Origin: an uncultured Bacteroidota bacterium
GTDB lineage: Bacteria > Bacteroidota > Bacteroidia > 2-12-FULL-35-15
NCBI GenBank assembly: GCA_903926385.1
Contig: CAIYIS010000007.1
Span: 71,614 to 135,613, forward strand
Direction of reading: 5' to 3'
DNA length: 64,000 nt
In this document: in pieces, positions 18,197 through 64,000 of the stretch
Layout: each line of letters begins with the position of its first letter
Numbering within the stretch: the first letter of the stretch is position 1
Made by a program: the position numbers and the translations under genes
The notes under the pieces: model-generated
Told to the model about the DNA's origin: nothing
The model's database searches: none
What the model saw: only the letters and a program-made list of their open reading frames with translations

Positions 18197-18799
18197 CTAT
18201 TTCGATTTTACAATCTTTCTAGTTTCGGAAAGTAAACCTTCTTTGTATGTACGAACAAAGTAAATTCCTGATGGGATTGCATCTAAATTCATTTCAATGG
18301 TTCCTTCAATCGAAGATAATTCAACAGATTTAACCAAAGAACCAACAACGTTCAAAATTTCAATTTTAGATAAGTTATTATACGTTAAACTAATTTTTTC
18401 GGTGAATGGATTAGGGTACACAGATGTCAAGAGATTTTCACTAGGTTCTTCAATTCCTACAGGTGTTACAGTGAAACTAGCCAACATTGAAGTTCCCATT
18501 AATCCACATTTGTAAGCATATGTTCCTGCTGTAGTAATTGTGTATGAGAATGTTTGGCCAGTAGTAGATAGATTTGGAGAATTAAAAGCTGCAGCCCCTG
18601 ATGGAATAATTATGCTTGCAACGTTGTGCGTCCCTGCTCCTGCAGCCAATGTCCAAACAATAACATCGCCAACTGCTGCATTTAATGCTTGTGGAGAAAA
18701 GGCGGCAGACCCTATTGAAACAGGAATGTTAACGGCATTTGAATTAATGTTACAAAAGATGAAACTTGATGCTAATAGAATTGTGTAAATTTTTTTCAT
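18197..18799 (-). CDS. small secreted protein with T9SS type A C-terminal sorting domain
   Basis: Signal peptide, and C-terminal YPNPFTEKISLTY...LPSGIYFVRTY...KIVKSK typical of Por_Secre_tail. The central region has an HNV...YAYKCGLMGTSM cupredoxin-like pattern lacking the second His. Confidence 0.65.
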   Translation of the reverse strand: MKKIYTILLASSFIFCNINSNAVNIPVSIGSAAFSPQALNAAVGDVIVWTLAAGAGTHNVASIIIPSGAAAFNSPNLSTTGQTFSYTITTAGTYAYKCGLMGTSMLASFTVTPVGIEEPSENLLTSVYPNPFTEKISLTYNNLSKIEILNVVGSLVKSVELSSIEGTIEMNLDAIPSGIYFVRTYKEGLLSETRKIVKSK

Positions 18800-19624: not shown

Positions 19625-21964
19625 TTAATTAATAAACAGAATTTTTGAGACACATTTTTGACTGCCATCAACACTTGTGCAGAATACCATGTAAACTCCG
19701 GTACTCACTCTTTCCCCTTTAAAATTGGTGCCGTACCATAATGCCTGACCTCCTTCTGAAGTAGTTTCATACACTAGTGTACCACTTATATCCGTAATTT
19801 TTACAGTTGAACTTTCAGACATTCCTTTGATTGCAATTGGTCCTGTATAATCTGGTTTTACTGGATTCGGAAACGCATACATACCGCTACAATCGTCATT
19901 GCTTTCGGTTGCAGAACCTCTGAATTCGATTATTCCTTTCGCCGTTCCAAAAAACACTTCACCTGTTTTATGGTTAATGGCAATTGTTCTAACATCATTA
20001 CTGAAAAGCGGACTGTTGTTCTCATCAAAATGATAGATTTGCTGTGTTCCGTCAGCTGACATTAAAAATACACCAGAATTGGCGGTTGCAATCCATTTTC
20101 TATTGGCATCATCCACAGCAATAGCCTGAACCAACTCTGTAAGTAATAAAATTTGAACATGCCCATCTTGAGTTAATAATATTTGCTGTGAATCAAAATT
20201 CTGACCAGAGACAAATGCATTTTCAGGAGAATAAAATACAGAAATACCCTTATCCGTTCCAACCCAAATTTCTCCATTTTTATCTTCTGCCATACAATAA
20301 ACATTTACACTTGGCAAAGCTCCGTTTCCTGAAGCTGATGTTAGGATTTTAGTATTTGCAGAGGAGGCGGTAGAATAATTTCCCGATGCGCATACCATCA
20401 TTCCTTTTCCCTGCAATGCAACCCATTTTTGATCATTTTTATCAATTAGTACTTGCCTTACATAGGCTCCACCTGCACCAATCATACTAGTGAAATCGAT
20501 AGCAGACCAAGTTCCTGATGAAGATTTTTTAACCAAACAATGCGGTACAGATGAATTACCAACCCACAAAGTTCCGTTAGCATCCATTGCCATGCCATCG
20601 GTCTTAATAGACCCAGCAACGCCTAATGTGCTGTTGGTATTGTTATAATATTTTACCGGAATATTATTGTAAAGTTCAATCACTCCATGTTCCCATGAAG
20701 AAGCAAAGCCATGTTTTTCATCTGCTGGATCAACTAAAGTATTGACCAAATCTAATAGTGTGTCAAAGCCAACTACGCTAGGGTAAGCTCCTTTTAAGTT
20801 AGTCCATGTATTATCCTTGTATGTATATATTTCGGCAGCCCTCCAAAGCCCATATGCACTCACATCGTATCCTCCAGGAACAACCAATAGGTTTCCTCCA
20901 GAACAACTCATCCCAAATGTTTTTTCGCTTGCAGGCCCATTAGGGTAATGATATTCTGAACCATAAGAATGTCTCCATGACACCAAACCATTGTTTCCAT
21001 CAGCAATCCACATATCTCCATTGGAATCATAGGCCGCACTATTTGCGTCGGTAACATAACTAGAAGGGCCTCCAAAAAACCATGAAGAATAGGCTGTTGA
21101 ACCAATAATTGAGTCGTACAAGGCAGCAGAACCCATCATAACTACTCCTAACTTATTGTTAAATACTCTTAATTGACGAACTGTATAGCCTGATGACTGG
21201 AACCATGGATTCCAAGAAGTATCTACGGGATTATAAACACTTATTAAATCCTGAAAAATCACTCCATTTTCTAAAAATTTTGAGCGATTAACATAAATTT
21301 TTCCTTGGAAGGCGGCAATTGTGCTGTATTTACCAGTAGGCAAATTTTGAACTCGATGCCAGTTGTTGAAATCAGCTAAGTTGGTGTTTTGAAAAAAGGC
21401 TTTGTAAACCCCAACTTCAGTAGCAACGTAAAAATAAGTGTCATCTGAAGTGATATCATATACTTTCATGGCATTTCCGTTTGTTCCAATATAGTAGGTA
21501 TCCGAGACTTCCATTCTATACATGTCGATAACCACAATACCAAACCCGCAAGCCAGATATGCAAATTGGTTCGAAAAATAAACATTGTAAATATGTTTAT
21601 CTCCAATTATGTTTTTGCGTTTGATATCCGAAATATTAATGATTGAATTGGAATTGTCAATGATATCGATGTTGGAATTTTCATAACAAATGATGGCCTT
21701 GTTCACGGTATGATTAAATCCAACCACCTTACCTTGCACATCTGATAGGCCGTTTATTTTTGATAAACGATCCATGGAATTGTCGCCTTTATTGAAGGCA
21801 AATATTCCGCTTTTGGTAACGCAATATACTTTTCCGTTTCCTTCGGCCACAGCCACTCCGCTCTTATACGAAAGGTGGTCAGCCCAATGAAAGATGGGTA
21901 CATTTTGGGCTATTCCAAAAGTGATGACGAACTGAACAGAAATTAATAAAATTATATTTTTCAT
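19625..21964 (-). CDS. PorZ-like T9SS protein: two-component-regulator propeller repeats plus T9SS type A CTD
   Basis: 779 aa with a signal peptide and repeated Reg_prop-like blades (..NGEIWVGTDKGISVF.., ..NRKWIATANSGVFLM..). The C-terminal YAFPNPV...GVYMV sorting domain and the size match P. gingivalis PorZ. Confidence 0.55.
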   Translation of the reverse strand: MKNIILLISVQFVITFGIAQNVPIFHWADHLSYKSGVAVAEGNGKVYCVTKSGIFAFNKGDNSMDRLSKINGLSDVQGKVVGFNHTVNKAIICYENSNIDIIDNSNSIINISDIKRKNIIGDKHIYNVYFSNQFAYLACGFGIVVIDMYRMEVSDTYYIGTNGNAMKVYDITSDDTYFYVATEVGVYKAFFQNTNLADFNNWHRVQNLPTGKYSTIAAFQGKIYVNRSKFLENGVIFQDLISVYNPVDTSWNPWFQSSGYTVRQLRVFNNKLGVVMMGSAALYDSIIGSTAYSSWFFGGPSSYVTDANSAAYDSNGDMWIADGNNGLVSWRHSYGSEYHYPNGPASEKTFGMSCSGGNLLVVPGGYDVSAYGLWRAAEIYTYKDNTWTNLKGAYPSVVGFDTLLDLVNTLVDPADEKHGFASSWEHGVIELYNNIPVKYYNNTNSTLGVAGSIKTDGMAMDANGTLWVGNSSVPHCLVKKSSSGTWSAIDFTSMIGAGGAYVRQVLIDKNDQKWVALQGKGMMVCASGNYSTASSANTKILTSASGNGALPSVNVYCMAEDKNGEIWVGTDKGISVFYSPENAFVSGQNFDSQQILLTQDGHVQILLLTELVQAIAVDDANRKWIATANSGVFLMSADGTQQIYHFDENNSPLFSNDVRTIAINHKTGEVFFGTAKGIIEFRGSATESNDDCSGMYAFPNPVKPDYTGPIAIKGMSESSTVKITDISGTLVYETTSEGGQALWYGTNFKGERVSTGVYMVFCTSVDGSQKCVSKILFIN

Positions 21965-22141: not shown

Positions 22142-22215
22142 GGCTTCGTAGTTCAACTGGATAGAATGGCAGATTCCGGTTCTGCAGGTTGGAGGTTCGA
22201 ATCCTCTCGAGGTCA
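22142..22215 (+). tRNA. tRNA-Arg (anticodon CCG)
   Basis: Hand-folded cloverleaf: D-arm GTTC/GAAT, perfect anticodon stem GCAGA/TCTGC with loop TTCCGGT, T-arm GGAGG-TTCGAAT-CCTCT. The acceptor GGCTTCG/CGAGGTC has two G-T wobbles and CCA is not encoded. The six-frame GFEPP ORF at 22004-22228 is the usual tRNA artefact. Confidence 0.6.
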
Positions 22216-22293
22216 CTAAATAATCCAATAGGATAAAATGGATGGAGATAGTTCTGGTTTTCGAATTATCTACTACTTATTCCAACAATGGAA

Positions 22294-23337
22294 TTAAAAA
22301 GTTACCGCTACTTCCTTTATATTATTGTAAGTAATCTTAGAAATCGCATTCAGTACATCAGGCAGTTTTTTTACATCTTTTCCTTGTGTCATTACTGTGA
22401 GTAGATATGGTGTTTGGTCAAGATAAACAATGCCCGATTCGGATAATTGATGAATTTCTGGATTGTTTCGGTCTCCCCACTCTCCAAATTTATGAGCTAA
22501 CAGGATGCTATTAGGAAGGCCGCTTTGAATTCCGTCTTTAAAGTCGCATTCGGTTAATAATTCAGCAATGAACTCTGAATCTTCTGTTTTCAAGTATCCC
22601 GAATTGTAAACTACTTTTAGAAAAGCGGAATAATCTTTGGCCGAAATCTGATAATTGATATCATGTACATCGGGCACAACTAACCCAAAATCGGAAAACA
22701 TTTTTTTGAATGCATCCAAATCAACATTGTTATTTAAAATAAAAGTTGCGTTGTTATCCGAATAAGCAATCATGTATTTGAGCAATTCTTTTATGGAATA
22801 GGTTCTTCCCGGAACAATCTGATTGGAATTGTACGTTTGCTGAGGCACTCCGCTTTTTGGTAAATTAAAAACTAATTTTTTGTTCAATATTCCCGGATTT
22901 CGTTCTTCCATTTTTAAATAGGTGATGAGTATTGGCAGTTTGATGAGAGAACCTGGATGAAACATAGCGTTTTCATTTATACTTATAAAATCACCTTTGC
23001 CAAATACTCTAATGTAAACCGAAGCATTGTCGAGTATTCCGTTTTGTTTGAATCTAGATATTGCGTCTTGTAACTCTATTTTTAATCCTTTGTAGTTACC
23101 CGATTCACAGGTTTTATCGGCAAACAATAAAGGGTTGATTAATTTAAACCCTTGTAATCTTTGGGCAGTTAATTCGCATGAAGAACCTGATGATTGAACG
23201 GTTTCAGGTATGGAAGTAACGGAGGCTGCATGGAGATTTGATTTCTTGTAGGCCTTATAACAAATAGCAAACGTAACTATACTAGAAGCTACAGAAGCTA
23301 CTAATAGCCCTTTTATCGTTACTTTTTTATTTAACAT
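22294..23337 (-). CDS. class A beta-lactamase-like serine hydrolase, secreted
   Basis: SxxK (SLIK), SDN (YSDNNA) and a KTG-like KFG motif in the correct order and spacing; N-terminal signal/anchor. Confidence 0.6.
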   Translation of the reverse strand: MLNKKVTIKGLLVASVASSIVTFAICYKAYKKSNLHAASVTSIPETVQSSGSSCELTAQRLQGFKLINPLLFADKTCESGNYKGLKIELQDAISRFKQNGILDNASVYIRVFGKGDFISINENAMFHPGSLIKLPILITYLKMEERNPGILNKKLVFNLPKSGVPQQTYNSNQIVPGRTYSIKELLKYMIAYSDNNATFILNNNVDLDAFKKMFSDFGLVVPDVHDINYQISAKDYSAFLKVVYNSGYLKTEDSEFIAELLTECDFKDGIQSGLPNSILLAHKFGEWGDRNNPEIHQLSESGIVYLDQTPYLLTVMTQGKDVKKLPDVLNAISKITYNNIKEVAVTF

Positions 23338-23513: not shown

Positions 23514-26117
23514 CTAGTGTTTCTCAGCACAAACTGATCCGCAGCTTTTCATACATTCTTCTTTTGTTTTGCAACCTTTGGTGCAACCTTCCATACATGC
23601 ACTTTCTTTTTTGTTTCCACATGCTGCTCCTTCTTTTTTATCGCAACAAGCTTTTGCTCCAGCGTTGCATATCTTTTTACATTCTGTGCAACCTTTTGCT
23701 TCGCACTCTACGTGGCATTTCCCAAAACATCCTTTTTCGCAAGCTATTCCTTTTTCTTTGCATTTATCCATGCACTCTTGAGAACAATCTGTCATTCCGG
23801 CATGTTCCATACACATTGCTTTTTCGTCAGGCGAGCATTTCATCGAATCGCAATATGCTGCACATTCTTCTATTGTCATTTGTGCACATTTGCTCATGTC
23901 GCATTTCATTTCCATTGCACCTGCACAACATTCTTTTTTCATTCCGCTGCACTCTCCGCCTTCTGTTGCACCTGCTACAGGAGCCATTGAAATGTATGGA
24001 GCAATTACCAACGAAACAATAGACATTAATTTGATAAGAATATTCATTGACGGGCCTGATGTATCTTTAAACGGGTCTCCAACTGTATCACCGGTAACAG
24101 ATGCTTTGTGTGGCTCTGATTTTTTGTAATACATTTCTCCGTTTATCATTACTCCTTTTTCGAATGATTTTTTAGCGTTATCCCAAGCACCTCCGGCATT
24201 GTTCTGGAAAATTCCCATCAATACACCCGAAACAGTAACACCGGCTAATAAGCCTCCTAATACTTCAGGGCCGAATGCAAATCCAACAATAAGTGGAGTG
24301 ATTAACGCAATGGCTCCCGGAAGCATCATTTCGCGGATAGATGCTTTGGTAGATATTTCCACACATTTTTCGTATTCAGGTTTTGCTTTGTATTCCATTA
24401 TTCCAGGAATTTCTCTGAATTGTCTTCTCACTTCGTTCACCATATCCATTGCTGCACGACCTACTGCTGCAATAGCCAATGAGGAGAAAATAAACGGAAT
24501 CATTGCTCCAACAAATAATCCGGCCAAAACATTGGCTTTGTAAATATCGATGGCGCTAATTCCGGCCACTCCAACAAATGCGGCAAACAATGCCAAAGCA
24601 GTTAACGCTGCCGAAGCTATCGCAAATCCTTTTCCGGCTGCAGCTGTGGTATTTCCTACTGCATCCAAATTATCGGTGCGCTCTCTAACTTCAGGTGGCA
24701 ATTGGCTCATTTCGGCTATACCACCTGCGTTATCAGCGATAGGGCCGAAAGCATCAATGGCTAATTGCATTGCTGTAGTAGCCATCATTCCGGCTGCAGC
24801 TATTGCCACCCCGTATAAACCCGCAAAATGATATGATATCATTATACCTCCTGCTAATGTCAAAATAGGAATAACTGTAGATTCCATACCTACCGAAAGT
24901 CCTCCGATAATATTAGTAGCATGTCCGGTTGCTGATTTCTGAATAATACTGTTTACCGGACGTTTGCCCATAGCTGTATAATACTCCGTAACGATACTCA
25001 TGATGGTTCCTACCACAAGTCCAACCATGATAGAAATAAATACATTGATATTAGTAAAATCATATCCTCTCAAATTCATATTAACCGGCAACATGTACAT
25101 TACCACAAAATAACTGGCAATAGCCGTTAAAATGATAGACGACCAGTTACCCAAATTCAAAGCTTTCTGAACACTGTCTTTTTCTCCTCTAATCTGAACA
25201 AAGAAAGTTCCGATAATGGAGAAAACAATACCTAAACCGCAAATAACCATTGGCAGCAATACCGGTGAGAAACCATTGAAACCGTCAATTGCAACACCGT
25301 TTTCTTTTGGCATTACAATTTCTTGTCCAAGGACCATTGTAGCCAAAATAGTAGCCACATACGAACCAAATAAGTCGGCACCCATACCAGCCACATCACC
25401 TACATTGTCTCCTACGTTATCAGCTATAGTGGCAGGGTTACGCACATCGTCTTCGGGAATTCCTGCTTCTACTTTACCCACTAAGTCTGCTCCCACATCG
25501 GCTGCTTTGGTGTAAATACCTCCACCCACACGGGCAAACAAAGCGATTGACTCAGCTCCTAATGAGAAACCGGTTAATACTTCGATAGCAGTGCGCATTT
25601 GCTCACTGTCCACATCCACTACATTAAATATTTTAAGGAAAATGATAAACAAACCACCTAATCCAAATACGGCTAATCCGGCCACACCTAATCCCATTAC
25701 AGTTCCTCCTGTAAACGATACTTTAAGGGCTTTTGCCAAACTGGTACGAGCAGCCTGTGTGGTACGAACGTTGGCTTTGGTAGCCACTTTCATTCCTATG
25801 TATCCGGCTGTAGCCGAAAATACTGCTCCTATAATAAAGGCAACGGCAATAATCCAGCTGGAGTGGATAGGATGACCATGTATTTCGTGTACAGTACCCG
25901 AAAAGGCCAGTAATGCCGCGGCAAAAATTACAAATATGCTCAATACTCTCCATTCGGCTTTCAAAAAGGCCATAGCTCCTTTGGCTATGTAGCCAGCAAG
26001 TTCTTGCATATTGGCATCTCCTGCATCCTGTTTGCTTACCCAGGCCGACTTCACTGCCATTACTATTAATCCTAAAATCCCGAAGAGGGGTGCTAAATAA
26101 ATAAAGTATTGATTCAT
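23514..26117 (-). CDS. hppA: membrane-bound H+-translocating pyrophosphatase (K+-stimulated type) with an unusual Cys-rich C-terminal extension
   Basis: Diagnostic DNVGDNVGD and [17 protein letters not shown] motifs; GNTTAA (Ala, not Lys) indicates the K+-dependent class. The last ~150 aa (from ..[13 protein letters not shown]) contain about 36 Cys plus many Met/Lys/Glu, unlike normal H+-PPases. Confidence 0.9.
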
Positions 26118-26195: not shown

Positions 26196-26544
26196 TTATC
26201 CTAATTAGCAAAAAGAGATTTTACCTTATACGGTAATTTTTATAGAAATCAATAATTTCGGAGGGGAGAAGAGTCGATTGAAAGTTGAAATGTTGGAAGT
26301 TTCAGGTATTAGGTTGTCATTATGAGCGCAGCAATTTCCATATTATCATTATTCAATAAACCTACTATTTATATTGCGTAAAATACGACAATAAAAGTCC
26401 GAATATTTCTGAACGGAGGTAATTGTTGCGGTTGGAAGTTAAAAGCAGGGGAATTAGAAATTTTAAGCACCGATATGAAGAGGGAGTTTGACAATTGGGG
26501 CATTCCGTTTCGGGACTTCTGTAATTATATTACATTTTCTTATC

Positions 26545-26780
26545 TTTAGTTTATAAATTCGTGTCTTGAGTTAATCAATTCGTGTCTCCAGATTATAAAT
26601 TCTTGTTTCCAGATTATAAATTCGTGACTTGAGGTAATCAATTCGTGTATTCAGTTTATGAATTCGTGTCTCCGGATTATAAATTCGTGTCTTGAGGTAA
26701 TCAATTCGTGTCTTCAGTTTATTAATTCGTGTCTCCAGATTACAAATTCGTGTCTCTAGTTTATGAATTCGTGCCAAGGT
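26545..26780. repeat. tandem array of about 11 copies of a 21-bp unit (consensus ATnAATTCGTGTCTCCAGATT)
   Basis: Direct reading: an invariant AATTCGTGTCT core with a variable 3' half. It lies in a 1.3-kb gene-free region upstream of hppA. There are no unique spacers, so it is not CRISPR. Confidence 0.85.
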
Positions 26781-54869: not shown

Positions 54870-55232
54870 GGGGTCGTACGGTTTTGACAGCGAGTGCGAT
54901 TTTTATGTAAGCATGTCGTGTGTTGTGAATATGACACGTAAATACTAATTCTCAAATTTCTATATGGCGAGTCTAACTACGCTATGGCTGCTTAATACCA
55001 AGTATTAAGTGCCTTTGTTTCCGGAGAAGCTCTGATCTTCTGCGTCTCCAGCGAAGCATCATAAACGAAGAAATAGTTGCGAAGAACTTCGATTCGCAAT
55101 GAGATAAAGAAGATAAGTAAACCTGTTGGCCTGCAAACTTGCCTAAGTTTAACGAAAATCAAAAGTAAGCTACACATGTAGAAAGCATATTAATTCCTTG
55201 TTTGGACGAGGGTTCGAATCCCTCCGACTCCA
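54870..55232 (+). ncRNA. ssrA: transfer-messenger RNA (tmRNA); tag peptide G-E-S-N-Y-A-M-A-A-stop
   Basis: The 5' end GGGGTCGTACGGTTTTGAC pairs with the 3' end CGACTCC-A. Internal tag ORF GGCGAGTCTAACTACGCTATGGCTGCTTAA; 3' tRNA-like T-arm GGACGAGGGTTCGAATCCCTCC. About 363 nt. Confidence 0.85.
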
Positions 55233-55295
55233 CTCCATGGGAAGGTTACATAAGTAGCCTTCCCTTTTTTGTTTCACCTGTAAGCGCTCTAATTC

Positions 55296-56137: not shown

Positions 56138-59100
56138 TTACTTAAGCACCGTAACACTTCCAATATATTTATGGTCTTCTTTGTGATTATCTTTTAAATT
56201 TACCACGTAAACATACACACCATCCTGCACCAAGTTCCCCATATAGGTTCCATCCCAGTGTTTAGATAAATCATCTCCATAAAATAACAGATTTCCCCAC
56301 CGGTCAAAAATTCTCATTTCGTAGGAAGTAATGCTTTCGCCCAAACCGTAAAACTCATCATTCACACCATCTCCGTTAGGAGTAAAAGCATCCGGAATAT
56401 AAAAAGTAAATACACCTTCTATAGAAATACAATGGGTTACAGTATCCGAACAATTCGCATTTGACGCGGTTAGTAACACGCAGTAAGAACCTATTTGAGA
56501 ATATTCATGTGTTGGATTTTTGGCACTACTGAAATTATTTGGCATTCCTGTATCTCCGAAATTCCAGCTCCACATAGTTGAATTGGTTGATAGATTAGTA
56601 AAATTAACAACCGGGAAAGTGATTAATGATGTCAATGGTGCTGTGAATTCAGCCACAGGCACCACATTAACTGTAACAGTTCCCGTTCCCGAACTAGAGC
56701 ACCCATTGGAGGTTCCGGTTACTGTATAAGTAGTTGTTGTGTCAGGAATTACTACTATATTGTTAGAAGTAGAGCCCGTATTCCACGAATAAGCAAGTGC
56801 TCCGTTGGCCGTAAGCACTGCTGAAGTACCTGCACACACCGTTACCGAATTTACACTAATTACAGGAAATTGATAAACCGTTATGGTTGCAGATGCAGTA
56901 GTGCTGCATCCCAATGCTGTTCCGGTTACAGTGTAACTTGTGGTAGCTGTTGGAAACACTGTAATGGCCGCAGTATTTGCCGCAGTATTCCATAAAAACG
57001 AAGTGGCATTACCCAACGCAGTTAAGGTTGCCGGTTGTCCTGCACAAGAAGAGATCGAATTTACAATAAGATTAGGAAGAGGATTAACCGTAACAGTTGA
57101 AACAGCTGTTGCCACACATCCAAGTGTTGAGCCGGTTACCGTATACGTAGTGGTTACAACAGGAGAGGCTGTTGCTGATGCTCCTGCAGCCGTTACTCCT
57201 GCACTCCATGTATAACTCACCGCTCCTGCTGCTGTCATGGTGGCCACAGCTCCGTTACATATTGTTGGTGAAGTAACGGTAACAATCGGAAGCGGATTAA
57301 CCAGCACCGATATGGTGTCTCTCGCACTTTCACAGCTAGCTATGGTTTGCGATACATAATAATTTGTTGTTCCTGCCACAAGTGTCGAAGGTGTTGGCGA
57401 AAGCGCATTTCCTGAGCCTCCTGCCGCAGCGGTGTACCAAAGCAAACCCGCACCGGTGGAAGTCAGGGCGGGTGCAACATCGTTCTGACAATAGGTAAGC
57501 GGTGAAACAACAACAGGTGGAGCAGGGGCACTAATGGTGACATTATAGCTGACTGCAGTTCCTGCACCACAAGTACCGGTTTCGGTAACAGAAACAGTTC
57601 CTACTCCGGCCGCACCAAAACTCACGGTTATCTGGTTTGTTCCTTGTCCGGCCGTTATGCTTGCTCCTGCCGGTACAGACCAGTTGAATGTAGAACCAGC
57701 AGTATTGGTTACAGAATATATAATACCTGTGGCATTCGGGCAAACAGGAGTAGTACCTGTGATGGCCGATGTTACGGGCAAAAGAGTAACCCCTACAGCT
57801 AAACTGACTGCTGTTCCCGGTCCGCAATTGTTTGTTTCGATCACAGAAACATTGCCACTGGTTACTCCAAAGGTTACTGTTATTTGATTGGTTCCTTGTC
57901 CGGCTGTAATGGTTGCACCTGCCGGAACGGTCCAGGCATAAGTGTTTCCAACTGTATTGGTAACTGAATAAACAACTCCTGTTGTATTTAAACATACAGT
58001 TGCAGGTCCTGTAATGACGGAGGTTGCAGGCAAAGAAGTTACCACAACAGCAAAGTTGACAGCCGCTCCCGGTCCGCAATTATTAGTTTCTATTACAGAA
58101 ACATTGCCTGAATTTGAACCGAAGGTTACAGTTATTTGATTGGTGCCTTGTCCTGCTGTGATACTTGCACCAACAGGAACTGCCCATGCATAGGTATTCC
58201 CAACAGTGTTGGTTACAGAAAACGTTACACCAGCTGTATTCGGACAAACAGGTGTAGTGCCTGTAATAGCCGATGTAACCGGTAAAGAGAATAAAGTAAC
58301 AGCAAAATTTACAGCTGCTCCCGGTCCGCAATTGTTGGTTTCTATTACGGAAACATTGCCCGCAGTCGCTCCAAAGTTTACTGTAATCTGGTTGGTGCCT
58401 TGGCCGGCAGTAATTGTTGCTCCTGCCGGAACGGTCCAGGCATAGGTATTTCCAACCGTATTGGTAACTGAATAAACAACTCCGGTGGCATTCGGGCAAA
58501 CAGGGGTAGTACCTGTAATGGCTGATGTAACAGGTAACGGAGAAATAGCAACAGCAAAGTTAACAGCCGCACCCGGTCCGCAATTATTGGTTTCTATTAC
58601 GGAAACATTGCCGGCATTGGTTCCAATGGTTACGGTTATCTGATTAGTCCCCTGACCGGCTGTAATGACAGAACCGGCTGGCACTGTCCATGCATAGGTT
58701 GAACCTGCTGTATTGGTAACCGAATAAATTACACCGGCAGTGTTTGGACAAACTGGTGTGGTGCCTGTGATAACTGATGTTACAGGTAAAGTGGTAACAC
58801 CAACAGCAAAGTTAACTGCCGCTCCCGGTCCGCAATTGTTTGTCTCAATTACTGAAACTGTTCCAGAAGTTACACCAAAGCTAACTGTAATTTGATTGGT
58901 ACCTTGACCGGCTGTTATGACTGCTCCTGCCGGAACAGTCCAGGCATAGGTATTTCCAATGGTGTTGGTAACAGAATAAGTAATACCTGTTGCATTCAAA
59001 CACACAGGTGTAATTCCTGTTATAGCTGATGTTGTTGGCAATGGAAAAATGGCAACAGCAAAGTTAACAGCTGCTCCCGGTCCGCAATTATTCGTTTCTA

Positions 59101-62100
59101 CAACTGAAACATTTCCCGGAGTAGTTCCAAAATCAACAGTGATCTGATTGGTGCCTTGTCCGGCTGTAATTGTTGCACCTGCCGGAACGGTCCAGGCATA
59201 AGTATTTCCAACCGTATTGGTAACTGAATAAACAACTCCTGTTGTATTAGGACAAACTGGTGTAGTGCCTGTGATGGCTGAAGTAACAGGTAATGAAAAA
59301 GTGGTTACAACAAAATTTACTGCTGTTCCTGGTCCGCAATTATTCGATTCGGCAACGGAAACAGTACCAGCAGTCGCTCCAAAGTTTACAGTAATCTGAT
59401 TAGTGCCTTGTCCTGCAGTAATCGTTGCTCCGGCAGGAACGGTCCAGGCATAAGTGTTTCCAACTGTATTGGTAACTGAATAAACAGCACCTGTTGCATT
59501 CGGGCAAACGGGAGTAGTGCCTGTAATGGTTGATGTGACAGGCAATGAATAAGTAGTTACAGCAAAATTTATGGCTGTTCCGGGTCCACAATTATTCGAT
59601 TCGACAACAGAAACAGTGCTTGCTGTTGCTCCAAAAGTTACTGTTATTTGGTTGGTGCCTTGTCCGGCTGTAATCGTAGCTCCTGCCGGAACGGTCCAGG
59701 CATAAGTATTTCCAACAGTGTTGGTGACTGAAAAAACAACTCCTACAGCATTCGGACAAACTGGTGTGGTGCCTGTGATGACTGATGTTACAGGTAACTG
59801 TGTAATCGTAACCGGGAAGTTAACGGCTGTTCCGGGTCCGCAATTGTTTGTCTCAATTACTGAAACTGTTCCAGAAGTTACACCAAAGCTAACTGTAATT
59901 TGATTGGTACCTTGACCGGCTGTTATGATTGCTCCTGCCGGAACAGTCCAGGCATAGGTATTTCCAATGGTGTTGGTAACAGAATAAGTAATGCCAGAGG
60001 CATTCAAACAAACCGGAGAAGAGCCTGTGATGGCTGATGTGGTTGGCAAAGGTGAAATGGCTACAGCAAAATTAACTGCCGGACCTGAACCGCACATATT
60101 GGTTTCAATTACTGAGACATTTCCCGGAGTGGCTCCGAAAGTAACGGTTATCTGATTGGTGCCTTGACCGGCTGTGATGGCAGCTCCTGTCGGAACAGTC
60201 CAGGCATAAGTATCTCCGGCAATATTGGTAACAGAATAAATTACCCCTGTGGTATTCGGACAAACTGGTGTGGTACCGGTAATGGCTGAAGTAACAGGTG
60301 GAGGAAGTATAGCAACAGCATAGTTAACTGTAGCTCCCACTCCGCATGTTCCCGTTTCGGTAACGGTAACATTTCCTCCCGTAGGGCCGAAGTTTACTGA
60401 AATTTGATTACTGCCTTGACCCGAAACGAGTGTAGCTCCTGCCGGAACTGTCCAGGCATAGGTACTGCCGGTGGTATTAACTACTGAAAAAAGAACTCCT
60501 GCAGCATTTGCACAAATAGGTGAAGTACCCGTGATAGCTGATGTAACTGGAAGTAAAGTAATAGCTACCGGAAGACTAACAGCAGCTCCTATTCCACACA
60601 CATTCGATTCGATAACAGAAACGGTGCCGCCTGCAGCTCCCCAATTGATGGCAATCTGATTTGTACCTTGCCCTGAAGCAATGGTAGCTCCGCCAGTTAC
60701 TGTCCAGCTGTATGTATTTCCAGCCACATTGGTAACCGAATAAGCTATACCGGGAGCATTGAGACAAACGGGCGAAGGGCCAATGATGGGTGTAGTTACA
60801 GGAATTGGTGTAACCACCAAGGCATAATTTACAGCAGGTCCCGGCCCGCAAACATTGGTTTCTACCACAGAAATGGTTCCTCCGGTTGTGCCGAAATTAA
60901 CGGTAATTTGATTAGTGCCTTGTCCGGCTGTAATGGTGGCTCCTGCCGGAACCGTCCAGGCATAGGTATCTCCAGGAGTATTGGTAACCGAATAACTAAC
61001 ACCTGCTGTGTTCGGACAAACAGGTGTGGTACCTGTGATGGCTGATGTAACAGGCAAAGGAGTAACAGCAACGGCCATGTTAACAGCTGCTCCGGGTCCG
61101 CAAATATTGGTTTGAACCACCGAAACGGTTCCGTTTGCACTTCCCCAGTTAACGGTTATCTGATTGCTACCTTGTCCGGCTGTGATGGTGGAACCTGCCG
61201 GAACGGTCCAGGCATAGGTGTTTCCAACAACATTAGTAACCGAATAAACCAATCCGGTTTGATTAGGACAAACGGGAGTGGTGCCTGCAATGGCTGATGT
61301 AACAGGTAAAGGGAAAATAGCAACTGGAAAATTAACTAAAACTCCCGGGCCGCAAACATTACTTTCTGTAACCGAAACATTGCCTCCTGTGCCGGCAAAG
61401 GTGACTGTAATCTGATTGGTACCTTGTCCGGAGGTAATAGTAGCACCTACCGGAACGGTCCAGGCATAGGTATCTCCGGGAACATTGGTAGCCGAATAAA
61501 TAACACCTGCAGCCGTAGGGCAAACGGGTGTGGTGCCTGTGATGGCTGAGGTAACGGGCAATTGAGTTACCACAACTGCAAGGTTAACGGCAGCTCCGGG
61601 TCCGCAAATATTGGTTTGAATAACAGAAATAGTTCCGTTGGCTCCGCCCCAGTTAACAGTTATCTGATTAGTGCCTTGTCCGGCTGTAATGGTGGCACCG
61701 GCCGGAACGGTCCAGGCATAGGTGTTTCCAACAACATTAGTAACCGAGTAAATCAATCCAGTTTGATTAGGACAAACGGGAGTGGTGCCTGCAATGGCTG
61801 AAGTAACAGGCAGAGGGAAGATAGCAACCGGAAAATTAACTGAAACTCCGGGTCCGCAAACATTGCTTTCTGTTACCGAAACATTGCCTCCTGTACCGGC
61901 AAAGGTTACTGTAATTTGATTGGTGCCTTGTCCGGATGTAATGGTAGCTCCAGCCGGAACGGTCCAGGCATAGGTATCTCCGGGAATATTGGTAACCGAA
62001 TAAACGACACCAGCAGCTGTAGGGCAAACGGGGGTGGTACCGGTGATGGCTGATGTAACTGGCAATTGAGTTACCACAACTGCAAGGTTAACAGCTGCTC

Positions 62101-64000
62101 CTGCTCCGCAAATATTGGTTTGAATCACCGAAACGGTTCCGTTTGCATTTCCCCAGTTAACTGTTATCTGATTAGTTCCTTGTCCGGCTGTGATGGAGGT
62201 TCCTGCCGGAACGGTCCAGGCATAGGTATCTCCAACAACATTGGTAACCGAAAAGATTAATCCGGTTTGATTAGGACAAACGGGAGTGGTGCCTGTGATG
62301 GCTGAGGTAACTGGTAAAGGAAAAATAGCCACCGGGAAGTTAACGGCCGGAGCAACTCCGCACGGGTTACTTTGTATCACCGACACATTGCCTCCTGTTC
62401 CGGCAAAGTTTACTGTAATTTGATTGGTGCCTTGTCCTGATGTAATGGTAGCTCCCGGAGGAACTGTCCAGGCATAAGTGCTTAATGCCACATTGGCCAC
62501 AGAATAAACAACTCCTGAAGCAGTAGGGCATACGGGTGTTGTTCCGGTAATAGGAGTGGCAACGGGCAATGGAGTAACGGAAACAGCCATGGTGATGGCC
62601 GGGTCGCTGCGGCAAATGTTAGACTGAATAACAGAAACGGTTCCACCTGTAGTGCCAAAATTAACAGTAATTTGATTTGTACCTTGCCCGGAAGTAATGG
62701 TAGCACCTGCCGGAACGGTCCATGTATAGGTTATTCCAGCAACAGCCGGAAGAGAATACACCATGCCGGTGGCGTTAGGACAAATAGGTGTTGGGCCGGT
62801 GATGGGTGCCGGAACAATAGTTACACCAATTACAGTAACCACTATTGGTTTTCGATAAGTGCCGGGGCAAAACCCTGCATAATAAGTGGCGGTAGCAAAC
62901 AAAGGAGGGGTGGTATAAGTAGGGCCTGTGGCTATGGGCGCTCCTCCAACCAAAGTTGTGTACCAATAAATGGTGGCACCAATAGGGCCATTTATAGAAG
63001 CCGTTAAAGTAGCAGTGTTTCCGTTACAGATGGTAATATCGGCCACGGTTATGGTATCGTGAGTAATGAGTTGATTTATAAGTCCGCTTGCACCTTTTGT
63101 TGCTCCGTTTGGAGGAAATTCAGTAAGTCCAGCTGAGTTTGTTGTTCCGTTGTTTCCACCATTTCCAATTTGAGTTATTGCTCCTCCTGCTGTGGCAAGG
63201 TAACCAGCACCGCCACCTCCACCAGGACCTTCAGCTTCAATACTGCCTGCAATAAGAAATTGTGTGCCCCCGGGGCCTCCGTTGACGGAAGCGGTAATGC
63301 CTGAAAGTGTTCCAACACTATTTATAATAATAGTTCCACCACCACCACCACCGGCAGCTCCATCAAATCCTGAATTTAAACAGGCTCCTCCAGGAGCTAC
63401 AATACTTCCCCCTCCGCTTAAAGTACCATAATTCATTATGTATACGATTCCGCCTCCTGGCATTCCAACACCAGCAGCTCCATTATCCCTGTCACCGGCA
63501 CCACCACCACCACCCATAAAAATTTTACCTGTAGAATAATCGAGCGGCCGTCCTCCTAATCCTCCGTTAGCTTGACGGTTATCTCCTCCCCATAAAGCAT
63601 TATTCGTTCCAGTAATCGTTGCATTCTGGTCTGTTAAAGAAGTGGAATAACCACCTCTTCCTCCACCTCCTGAAGTATGAGCTGAAAATCCAGGAGATTC
63701 CAAATCCCAGGCTGAAACCCAACCTGCACCTCCTGCAACACTTGGATTTCCTTGGCCATCCCAAGTAAGCAATGATGAAGCATTAGCACCACCACCACCA
63801 CCAGCATTATGACAATCACCACCACCACCTCCATTAGCGAAAGCTCCTCTACCATACTGCCCACCCAATGTATTGTAATCGGCACCATATCCTCCAATGC
63901 CTTCTCCTTTATTGGAGCCCACTGTGAAACTTGTTCCTGCATATTGTGTTCCTCCGAAGCCAGTGGGGTTAAGGGGAGCCAAACCGCCTCCCCTGAAACC
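56138..64000 (-). CDS. giant T9SS type B substrate / adhesin (over 2614 aa; the N-terminus continues beyond the window end)
   Basis: The N-terminus is Gly-rich. About 25 tandem 76-aa Ig/PKD-like repeats follow (..PVTSAITGTTPVCPNxxGVxYSVTNxxGxTYAWTVPAGATITAGQGTNQITVxFG..). After further Ig-like repeats come a PKD domain (WSWNFGDTG...HEY...GSY) and a type B CTD (FTPNGDGVNDEF...FDRWGNLLF..WDGT..GVYVYVV). Confidence 0.85.
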   Translation of the reverse strand, partial: GFRGGGLAPLNPTGFGGTQYAGTSFTVGSNKGEGIGGYGADYNTLGGQYGRGAFANGGGGGDCHNAGGGGGANASSLLTWDGQGNPSVAGGAGWVSAWDLESPGFSAHTSGGGGRGGYSTSLTDQNATITGTNNALWGGDNRQANGGLGGRPLDYSTGKIFMGGGGGAGDRDNGAAGVGMPGGGIVYIMNYGTLSGGGSIVAPGGACLNSGFDGAAGGGGGGTIIINSVGTLSGITASVNGGPGGTQFLIAGSIEAEGPGGGGGAGYLATAGGAITQIGNGGNNGTTNSAGLTEFPPNGATKGASGLINQLITHDTITVADITICNGNTATLTASINGPIGATIYWYTTLVGGAPIATGPTYTTPPLFATATYYAGFCPGTYRKPIVVTVIGVTIVPAPITGPTPICPNATGMVYSLPAVAGITYTWTVPAGATITSGQGTNQITVNFGTTGGTVSVIQSNICRSDPAITMAVSVTPLPVATPITGTTPVCPTASGVVYSVANVALSTYAWTVPPGATITSGQGTNQITVNFAGTGGNVSVIQSNPCGVAPAVNFPVAIFPLPVTSAITGTTPVCPNQTGLIFSVTNVVGDTYAWTVPAGTSITAGQGTNQITVNWGNANGTVSVIQTNICGAGAAVNLAVVVTQLPVTSAITGTTPVCPTAAGVVYSVTNIPGDTYAWTVPAGATITSGQGTNQITVTFAGTGGNVSVTESNVCGPGVSVNFPVAIFPLPVTSAIAGTTPVCPNQTGLIYSVTNVVGNTYAWTVPAGATITAGQGTNQITVNWGGANGTISVIQTNICGPGAAVNLAVVVTQLPVTSAITGTTPVCPTAAGVIYSATNVPGDTYAWTVPVGATITSGQGTNQITVTFAGTGGNVSVTESNVCGPGVLVNFPVAIFPLPVTSAIAGTTPVCPNQTGLVYSVTNVVGNTYAWTVPAGSTITAGQGSNQITVNWGSANGTVSVVQTNICGPGAAVNMAVAVTPLPVTSAITGTTPVCPNTAGVSYSVTNTPGDTYAWTVPAGATITAGQGTNQITVNFGTTGGTISVVETNVCGPGPAVNYALVVTPIPVTTPIIGPSPVCLNAPGIAYSVTNVAGNTYSWTVTGGATIASGQGTNQIAINWGAAGGTVSVIESNVCGIGAAVSLPVAITLLPVTSAITGTSPICANAAGVLFSVVNTTGSTYAWTVPAGATLVSGQGSNQISVNFGPTGGNVTVTETGTCGVGATVNYAVAILPPPVTSAITGTTPVCPNTTGVIYSVTNIAGDTYAWTVPTGAAITAGQGTNQITVTFGATPGNVSVIETNMCGSGPAVNFAVAISPLPTTSAITGSSPVCLNASGITYSVTNTIGNTYAWTVPAGAIITAGQGTNQITVSFGVTSGTVSVIETNNCGPGTAVNFPVTITQLPVTSVITGTTPVCPNAVGVVFSVTNTVGNTYAWTVPAGATITAGQGTNQITVTFGATASTVSVVESNNCGPGTAINFAVTTYSLPVTSTITGTTPVCPNATGAVYSVTNTVGNTYAWTVPAGATITAGQGTNQITVNFGATAGTVSVAESNNCGPGTAVNFVVTTFSLPVTSAITGTTPVCPNTTGVVYSVTNTVGNTYAWTVPAGATITAGQGTNQITVDFGTTPGNVSVVETNNCGPGAAVNFAVAIFPLPTTSAITGITPVCLNATGITYSVTNTIGNTYAWTVPAGAVITAGQGTNQITVSFGVTSGTVSVIETNNCGPGAAVNFAVGVTTLPVTSVITGTTPVCPNTAGVIYSVTNTAGSTYAWTVPAGSVITAGQGTNQITVTIGTNAGNVSVIETNNCGPGAAVNFAVAISPLPVTSAITGTTPVCPNATGVVYSVTNTVGNTYAWTVPAGATITAGQGTNQITVNFGATAGNVSVIETNNCGPGAAVNFAVTLFSLPVTSAITGTTPVCPNTAGVTFSVTNTVGNTYAWAVPVGASITAGQGTNQITVTFGSNSGNVSVIETNNCGPGAAVNFAVVVTSLPATSVITGPATVCLNTTGVVYSVTNTVGNTYAWTVPAGATITAGQGTNQITVTFGVTSGNVSVIETNNCGPGTAVSLAVGVTLLPVTSAITGTTPVCPNATGIIYSVTNTAGSTFNWSVPAGASITAGQGTNQITVSFGAAGVGTVSVTETGTCGAGTAVSYNVTISAPAPPVVVSPLTYCQNDVAPALTSTGAGLLWYTAAAGGSGNALSPTPSTLVAGTTNYYVSQTIASCESARDTISVLVNPLPIVTVTSPTICNGAVATMTAAGAVSYTWSAGVTAAGASATASPVVTTTYTVTGSTLGCVATAVSTVTVNPLPNLIVNSISSCAGQPATLTALGNATSFLWNTAANTAAITVFPTATTSYTVTGTALGCSTTASATITVYQFPVISVNSVTVCAGTSAVLTANGALAYSWNTGSTSNNIVVIPDTTTTYTVTGTSNGCSSSGTGTVTVNVVPVAEFTAPLTSLITFPVVNFTNLSTNSTMWSWNFGDTGMPNNFSSAKNPTHEYSQIGSYCVLLTASNANCSDTVTHCISIEGVFTFYIPDAFTPNGDGVNDEFYGLGESITSYEMRIFDRWGNLLFYGDDLSKHWDGTYMGNLVQDGVYVYVVNLKDNHKEDHKYIGSVTVLK
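57200..62810. repeat. about 25 near-identical 228-bp tandem repeats inside the giant adhesin gene
   Basis: DNA-level periodicity of 228 bp (76 codons) with high identity. It generates dozens of spurious ORFs in all other frames. Confidence 0.8.

Follow-up and report, generated by a model that had tools for sequence, protein, structure and literature searches.

Does an hppA gene that appears to encode a proton pump with a long cysteine-rich extension really do so, on which side of the membrane would that extension lie, and what might it be for? We addressed these questions in a 64,000-nucleotide (nt) stretch of an uncultured Bacteroidota bacterium (contig CAIYIS010000007.1 of assembly GCA_903926385.1, positions 71,614 to 135,613 of the forward strand; hereafter the window), for which a first-pass annotation had described hppA as an H+-translocating pyrophosphatase (H+-PPase) fused to a Cys- and Met-rich, metallothionein-like tail. 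We are nearly certain that the gene specifies a membrane pyrophosphatase, predicted to be a K+-dependent H+-PPase of the Flavobacterium johnsoniae type, with a genuine, translated and conserved periplasmic tail of 156 residues that is modular and rich in Cys. Its function is proposed more tentatively: with somewhat less than even confidence, we suggest that the tail binds soft metals through its thiolates and acts as a periplasmic buffer, store or sensor.

We found the pump to be complete and of a familiar family. PF03030 (H_PPase) matched amino acids (aa) 14-705 over profile positions 1-645 of 645 (E 1.5e-269), and the core aligned end to end with the solved 16-helix pumps of Vigna radiata and Thermotoga maritima (4a01, E 3.3e-173; and 4av3, E 1.4e-169), so that profile and structures alike place the protein among the membrane pyrophosphatases. 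Since the chains of both solved pumps end ~10 residues past the point matching aa 710, the residues from aa 712 to aa 867 (window 23517-23984) are extra, and the surplus of ~150 aa noted in the first-pass annotation was confirmed as 156 aa beyond the ends of the Pfam domain and of the solved structures. This tail holds 28 Cys rather than the 36 or so first counted; given that Cys makes up 1.3% of long open reading frames (ORFs) in the window, the chance of finding so many Cys (28 or more) in a segment of 156 residues is ~4e-23, and the 711-aa core has 2 Cys only. The other residues are chiefly K (24), E (20), A (19), G (16) and M (12), with a single Tyr, a single Phe and no Leu, Arg or Trp. 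Among the 27 Cys spacings CxxxC dominates (11), followed by Cx7C (5), Cx6C, Cx4C (3 each), CC (2), CxxC, Cx5C and Cx8C (1 each); of the arrangements originally listed, CC and CxxC are therefore present and CxC is absent. The description of the sequence as normal in complexity proved accurate, as GC content is 0.42 in tail and core alike and Tandem Repeats Finder reported no repeat within the tail, which is therefore not a simple-repeat artefact. The same bias runs through the species-level tails, in which Cys reaches 14% and Met 10%, C, M, H, D and E together account for 46% of residues, and L, I, F, R and W hardly occur. Across the tails of loci L001-L080, Arg stands at 0.2% vs. 13.6% for Lys, with Leu, Ile, Phe and Trp together below 2%; this preference for Lys over Arg exceeds what an AT-rich genome alone would suggest.

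A frameshift or a lost stop codon, introduced by sequencing or assembly, could in principle have joined the pump to a downstream ORF, an explanation for which the sole argument is that, in general, a long C-terminal extension seen in a metagenome assembly may be false. The ORF runs uninterrupted from start to stop, with pump and tail in one frame; P0161, a database protein that differs from it in none of the 867 residues, is recorded for 10 public contigs (NCBI and ENA), and population variants with 1-12 substitutions retain the frame and every Cys. We scanned one genome per bacterial species with a profile of the tail, obtained 147 positive genomes and retrieved 80 loci: the tail lay in the pump's own ORF in 77 of these (the remaining three were cut by contig ends), and in none of the 80 did it occur as a separate gene beside a pump. 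In the relatives L001-L003 all 28 Cys were retained (28/28) at just 66-72% identity over the non-Cys tail positions, and tail dN/dS was 0.07-0.11 in comparisons with L001-L003 and 0.07-0.15 overall (approximate, as dS was saturated), which points to purifying selection on the tail. Directly after the stop codon stands a terminator-like hairpin (Table 1) that is predicted to mark the true end of hppA. These results refute an artefactual join, to which we assign next to no probability. The claim of an in-frame fusion thus stands, and the check for a frameshift or false join, as proposed in the first-pass annotation, gave no sign of an artefact, with population variants and relatives alike keeping the frame. 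Two plus-strand ORFs (23564-24022 and 23712-23990) were rejected as by-products of composition; conservation tracks the minus-strand frame.

The survey further suggests that a Cys-rich tail is the rule in this clade of Bacteroidota, which is mostly uncultured and largely freshwater, with at least 147 species bearing one. The 120 closest full-length relatives all measure 784-949 aa and hence have tails of 80-241 residues (120/120), so that the tail, at first called unusual, is not so within its clade; it is unusual in that no database annotates it as a domain. An earlier proviso, that the novelty would fall if the tail proved to be a common annotated domain of the clade's pumps, therefore held in its first half and failed in its second: the tail is common there and annotated nowhere. 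Pfam and NCBIfam gave no match to the window tail at E<=10, Pfam on 66 tails at E<=1 returned no Cys-rich, metallothionein or cofactor family and just noise (Ras, DUF6664), and a literature search that included a 2024 review of these enzymes yielded no description of a Cys-rich pyrophosphatase tail. A sequence-profile search of the PDB gave a best hit at E 0.39 to amyloid precursor, which we rejected as noise. We conclude that the tail represents a putative, previously undescribed and clade-wide domain family on a known pump, with no counterpart in Pfam, NCBIfam or the PDB.

Outside this set, an exhaustive HMMER search of 1.84 billion representative proteins gave 56 hits only, nearly all of them C-terminal fragments of pumps, with two (P0018 and P0032) clearly lacking the pump. 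P0018 (L082:6001-6576) is a small two-helix membrane protein in which GPG/Cys repeats precede modules A and B of the tail (described below), and P0032 is a lipoprotein in which module B is repeated three times in tandem, found on a second contig (L083:1351-1824) and also at L081:237-752; the neighbouring genes of P0018/L082 and of P0032/L081/L083 offered no functional clue. Three further hits on short contigs, which join a tail fragment to a Reg_prop beta-propeller, a fragment of an MFS transporter or the N-terminus of a SAM synthetase (P0041, P0059 and P0074), look like assembly chimeras.

Table 1. Features of the hppA locus and of its surroundings; positions are those of the window.
Feature	Position	Strand	Basis
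Complete hppA including stop codon, 867-aa membrane pyrophosphatase with Cys-rich tail	23514..26117	-	ORF list, Pfam, identical P0161
Pump core, aa 1-710, 16 transmembrane helices	23988..26117	-	alignment to 4a01 and 4av3
Glu at 5.43 in pump core	inside 25506-25559	-	motif coordinates
Gly6.53/Ala6.57 in pump core	25350-25376	-	motif coordinates
Ala12.46/Gly12.49 in pump core	24627-24656	-	motif coordinates
Linker after helix 16, aa 711-737, 3 Cys including conserved 'ECC' pair	23907..23987	-	
Module A, aa 738-769, 32 aa, six Cys, C-x4-C-x7-C-x3-C-x4-C-x7-C	23811..23906	-	
Lineage-specific insert, aa 778-817, 40 residues, 10 Cys mostly in Cx3C register	23667..23786	-	
Spacer, aa 818-840, 3 Cys including second CC pair	23598..23666	-	
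Module B, aa 841-867, protein C-terminus, six Cys, Cx3Cx3C-x5-Cx3Cx3C	23517..23597	-	
Terminator-like hairpin, 16-bp stem then T run, 19 nt past the stop codon	23458..23495	-	
Class A beta-lactamase-family protein, directly downstream of hppA	22294-23337	-	
tRNA-Arg(CCG)	22142-22216	+	
PorZ-like type IX secretion component	19625-21964	-	
tmRNA gene	54870-55235	+	
Very long ORF, 2614 aa, reaching nearly to the window end	56138-63982	-	

Alignment of the tails suggests a shared plan, in which a linker is followed by a universal module A, after which come Cx3Cx3C modules that vary between tails and stretches rich in Met or His (Table 1). The CC cysteines of the linker are nearly invariant, within a fuller motif (K/T)ECC; the first 20 tail residues have a predicted local distance difference test score (pLDDT) of ~50 in AlphaFold2 models, the linker is probably flexible, and at least two MxM or MxxM motifs occur in it in 20 of 77 complete species-level tails. 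The six Cys columns of module A are invariant in an alignment of 66 tails, and among 330 distinct copies of the module all six Cys are present in 297, D3, M10, D20 and K29 are conserved at 95-97%, and a loss nearly always affects one Cys only (V, M, I or L takes the place of C2 alone in 22 distinct sequences). Its two halves form a duplicated 15-aa unit, xCDxxKCx4Kx2C (permutation p ~1.5e-4; p 0.05 on non-Cys columns only), and the whole module is sometimes doubled, the copies being linked by 'SMYGADGKF'. AlphaFold2 models module A as three short helices (pLDDT 88-96); it is thus predicted to fold confidently, yet its 32 residues are too few for a hydrophobic core, and no fold neighbour was found in the PDB. 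Module A is the first folded element past helix 16, even where a YceI or other domain comes next. The insert (pLDDT 69-84) is found in the window and in L001-L014 and is missing from most other tails, the spacer is predicted to be disordered (pLDDT <50 for tail residues 110-128), and module B (pLDDT 73-89) is conserved as the ending of many tails. The tails are 54-240 residues long and contain 5-28 Cys, with L071 as the minimal, five-Cys form, and 10 of the 77 complete species-level tails have His-rich ends.

Two variations on this plan were seen. At L042:5974-6693 and L049:3016-3735, and in P0257 and P0269, module A leads into a whole YceI-like domain (PF04264, E 8.5e-37), and the fusion of pump and YceI totals ~950 aa. 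In Flavobacterium-type pumps (L076:2687-3091; P0025, P0028, P0042, P0048 and P0105-P0160) helix 16 ends ...LTCLIGLVIAPILG, and the tail runs through module A, 'SHYDADGKF' and a CC pair into a conserved ~45-residue domain (VKVEI.N.NGKAKATVTT....VFEGS.EEVKAKVEALK) that has no Pfam match.

Which ion the pump moves can be read, with due caution, from the residues that line its core. Glu5.43 lies 7 residues ahead of R5.50, opposite S235 of VrPPase in the alignment; the motif DLFGSYVA supplies G6.53 and A6.57, with Glu at neither position; and GNTTAAxGKG (aa 488-497) supplies Ala12.46/Gly12.49, which we take to be the signature of K+ dependence. The residues at 5.43, 6.53, 6.57, 12.46 and 12.49 were the same in 191 of the 191 full-length tail-bearing relatives scored. 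A Glu at 6.53 forms the Na+ site (PMC6882861, Table 1), and the window pump has Gly there instead; Glu5.43 marks the unusual K+-dependent H+-PPase of F. johnsoniae, going by the passages of PMC10897367 and PMC6882861 that cite Luoto et al., 2011. NCBIfam NF001955, the equivalog for Na+-translocating PPases, nonetheless scored 1260 bits, above its curated cutoff of 1059. Database labels on the pump and its relatives read 'sodium-translocating' or 'K+-stimulated sodium pump'. Because Glu6.53 is absent and Glu5.43 present, we doubt the sodium label, which is probably wrong for this subfamily and a systematic mis-annotation. The pump is probably a K+-dependent H+-PPase of the F. johnsoniae type, its H+ transport being predicted from the signature, and the original designation as an H+-PPase thus holds as probable despite the automatic labels. 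The likeness to the F. johnsoniae enzyme extends over Glu5.43, Gly6.53, Ala6.57 and Ala12.46/Gly12.49, the two bacteria belong to the same phylum, and fragments labelled Flavobacterium sp. also bear module A; the Cys-rich tail is probably a trait of this rare Glu5.43 H+-pump subfamily. The literature searched, which did not extend to the original 2011 description, nowhere describes the F. johnsoniae enzyme as having a Cys-rich tail.

We next consider on which side of the membrane the tail would lie. The core matches the 16-helix solved pumps over its full length, and even-numbered helices of the pump start in the cytoplasm (PMC8657866); with 16 helices so oriented, the C-terminus is placed in the periplasm. 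What follows helix 16 in relatives agrees with this: some of them (L042, L049, P0257 and P0269) continue from module A into a YceI domain at the same C-terminal position, YceI and OmpA-like domains are periplasmic families, and module B occurs in a lipoprotein, which we count as further support. We therefore conclude that the C-terminus and the whole tail are periplasmic, and the non-cytoplasmic C-terminus expected in the first-pass annotation gains support from the alignment, the helix orientation and the YceI continuation alike. A precedent exists in the 810-aa pump of Paucibacter sp. KCTC 42545, which ends in an OmpA-like domain (PMC11210485). There, too, an extra folded periplasmic domain follows helix 16, and the C-terminus of the pump evidently tolerates fusions; unlike it, the domain in the window is rich in Cys, falls into no assigned family and is clade-wide rather than sporadic.

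The route of export bears on one further explanation, in which the tail would be a cofactor domain, holding an Fe-S cluster or a c-type haem, that is exported with the pump. Its many Cys would suit such a role, and the window's closest relatives have in their insert a conserved C-x-G-x-C-H sequence similar to the rare haem sites of the form CxxxCH. That sequence, however, is limited to one subclade and lies outside module A, the canonical CxxCH is absent, and Pfam matched no cofactor domain. Moreover, no twin-arginine motif was seen in the sequence ahead of helix 16; the tail would therefore cross the membrane unfolded and could not carry a cytoplasmically assembled Fe-S cluster, following the principle given in PMC5449189. 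With neither a twin-arginine motif nor CxxCH, we rejected an Fe-S or haem domain, and consider a cofactor role very improbable.

Three known Cys-rich systems invite comparison. Metallothioneins of the SmtA/BmtA type share with the tail a high content of Cys and Lys and a near absence of aromatic and large hydrophobic residues; they differ in that the tail has no CxC, one CxxC, much Met and no metallothionein match in Pfam, and in that it would be periplasmic and tethered to the membrane, whereas metallothioneins are cytosolic and free. The term metallothionein-like is thus apt for composition and fails by motif (no CxC) and by profile (Pfam and NCBIfam for the window tail, Pfam for 66 tails), and these comparisons argue that the tail is not a member of a metallothionein family. 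Csp1 and Csp3 (PF03860) bind many Cu(I) ions through Cys at positions i and i+4 on helices, Csp1 being an exported, periplasmic protein; the tail resembles them in its mostly CxxxC spacing and its helical predictions, but fails both the PF03860 profile and the test for a four-helix bundle with a Cys-lined core. The small Tim proteins and Cox17 form hairpins of two antiparallel, disulfide-joined helices with twin Cx3C or Cx9C motifs, to which the spacing of module B is similar, and the periplasm is topologically equivalent to the mitochondrial intermembrane space; there is, however, no sequence or fold match to module B, whose arms have three Cys each vs. two, and AlphaFold2 predicts its second arm alone as helical, the first (CMEGCTKGC) not.

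We reasoned that a periplasmic segment of this composition could bind metal. The tail would emerge unfolded past helix 16 and be kept on the periplasmic surface of the inner membrane, where its thiolates, with Met, His, Asp and Glu, would bind soft metals, Cu(I) or Zn(II) most likely, in small metal-thiolate clusters. Module A (2 x 3 Cys) and module B (Cx3Cx3C twice) may each arrange six sulfurs about one cluster, and the tail as a whole, tethered to the membrane, would then buffer, store or sense metal in the periplasm. In Cox17 disulfides exist side by side with thiols that bind Cu(I), and some Cys of the tail may likewise form disulfides while others bind metal, as they do when Cox17 is partly oxidised; a mixed state, part disulfides and part metal-binding thiols, is quite possible. 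That the modules also sit on other anchors (P0018 and P0032) argues for an autonomous binding unit.

It has to be weighed against this proposal that the same modules could instead be stapled by disulfides, three within module A and three within module B, giving tiny helical domains docked on the periplasmic face beside the ion exit that would make the pump dimer more stable or act as a gate or sensor there. Helix 16 lines the ion exit channel, and module A always adjoins it as the first folded element. The location is periplasmic and oxidising, each module has six Cys at fixed spacing, module A is modelled at a pLDDT of ~90 though too small for a hydrophobic core, module B resembles a Cx3C helical hairpin, and fusion to the pump is nearly exclusive, with just P0018 and P0032 of the 56 representative hits clearly pump-less. 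Regulation on the exit side also has a precedent, in that lumenal loop 2-3 of the plant vacuolar H+-PPase has been proposed as a regulator or sensor at the exit channel (PMC8657866). Loop and tail are both lineage-specific elements on the exit side of the pump, but the loop is internal, 14-19 residues long and not enriched in Cys, whereas the tails are C-terminal, of 54-240 residues and made of several modules.

Four observations nevertheless lead us to favour metal binding over a purely disulfide-stapled cap. Cys counts in the 77 complete species-level tails show no bias towards even numbers (44 even, 33 odd, p = 0.25); module A mostly loses one Cys at a time and seldom a pair, and a minimal tail with five Cys exists; potential ligands (C, M, H, D and E) make up nearly half of the residues while hydrophobics are scarce; and orthologues that lack some of the Cys modules have His-rich or Met-motif segments, which a purely structural role would leave unexplained. 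The occurrence of the modules on unrelated anchors also speaks against a cap. On balance, a disulfide cap seems to us possible but rather unlikely.

Several points weigh against metal binding, too. Aerobic bacteria normally oxidise exported Cys to disulfides, and periplasmic Cu(I) sites mostly use Met and His and seldom Cys. The conserved modules are all even in Cys (6, 6 and the CC pair), as is the window total of 28, and disulfides would fit these numbers equally well; CxxxC differs from the classical chelating spacing of metallothioneins; and the tail matches no known metal-binding family in sequence or fold. No gene family, including those of metal homeostasis, is a conserved neighbour of the tailed pumps in 81 loci, the commonest reaching 18 of 81, and to our knowledge pyrophosphatase function has no tie to metals on the periplasmic side.

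A redox function was also considered, in which the Cys and Met residues would cycle between redox states and so switch the pump as lakes shift between oxic and anoxic conditions, or would act as a sacrificial antioxidant that scavenges oxidants. The abundance of Cys and Met across tails would suit this, odd Cys counts leave free thiols, and the records of relatives name many metagenome-assembled genomes from lakes, reservoirs and groundwater. Against it, the exact Cys spacing of module A and its conserved D3, D20, K29, M10 and Y18 point to a defined fold or site and not to a bulk scavenger, a thioredoxin-like CxxC active site is absent (1 CxxC in 27 spacings), and no redox partner gene is conserved nearby in the 81 loci; we regard a redox role as improbable.

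The surroundings of hppA in the window are unrelated to it: its neighbours are a class A beta-lactamase-like gene, PorZ and RecO (Table 1). Some 5 kb downstream, beyond the beta-lactamase-like gene, the tRNA, PorZ and RecO, a gene on the minus strand (18197-18799) encodes a protein of 200 aa that combines a plastocyanin/azurin-like copper-binding domain (E 8.5e-07) with a C-terminal sorting domain for type IX secretion. Upstream of hppA, a ~1.3-kb non-coding stretch contains eleven 21-bp tandem repeats (26543-26773; consensus TCTTCAGTTTATAAATTCGTG, 77% matches, 63-bp higher-order period), ~430 nt before the start codon, which translate into a spurious 68-aa 'ETRI..' ORF.

Membrane pyrophosphatases serve as models of a minimal primary ion pump and are drug targets, and their known regulation is cytoplasmic or, in plants, acts through a small lumenal loop; we know of no membrane pyrophosphatase in which a domain of this kind exerts regulation from the periplasm. 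The present findings suggest that the Glu5.43 H+-pump subfamily has an unexplored periplasmic function, given a conserved, foldable domain on helix 16 in at least 147 species, and module A merits an entry of its own in domain databases. More speculatively still than metal binding itself, the tail may found a new extracytoplasmic metal-thiolate family and, tethered to a primary proton pump, might either store Cu(I)/Zn in the periplasm or regulate the exit side of the pump in response to metal or redox state. Should it bind metal, abundant freshwater Bacteroidota would have a periplasmic metal-thiolate module of a new type and a new means of holding metal buffering at the membrane; should it prove to be a cap locked by disulfides, bacterial pyrophosphatases would gain their first regulatory domain on the exit side.

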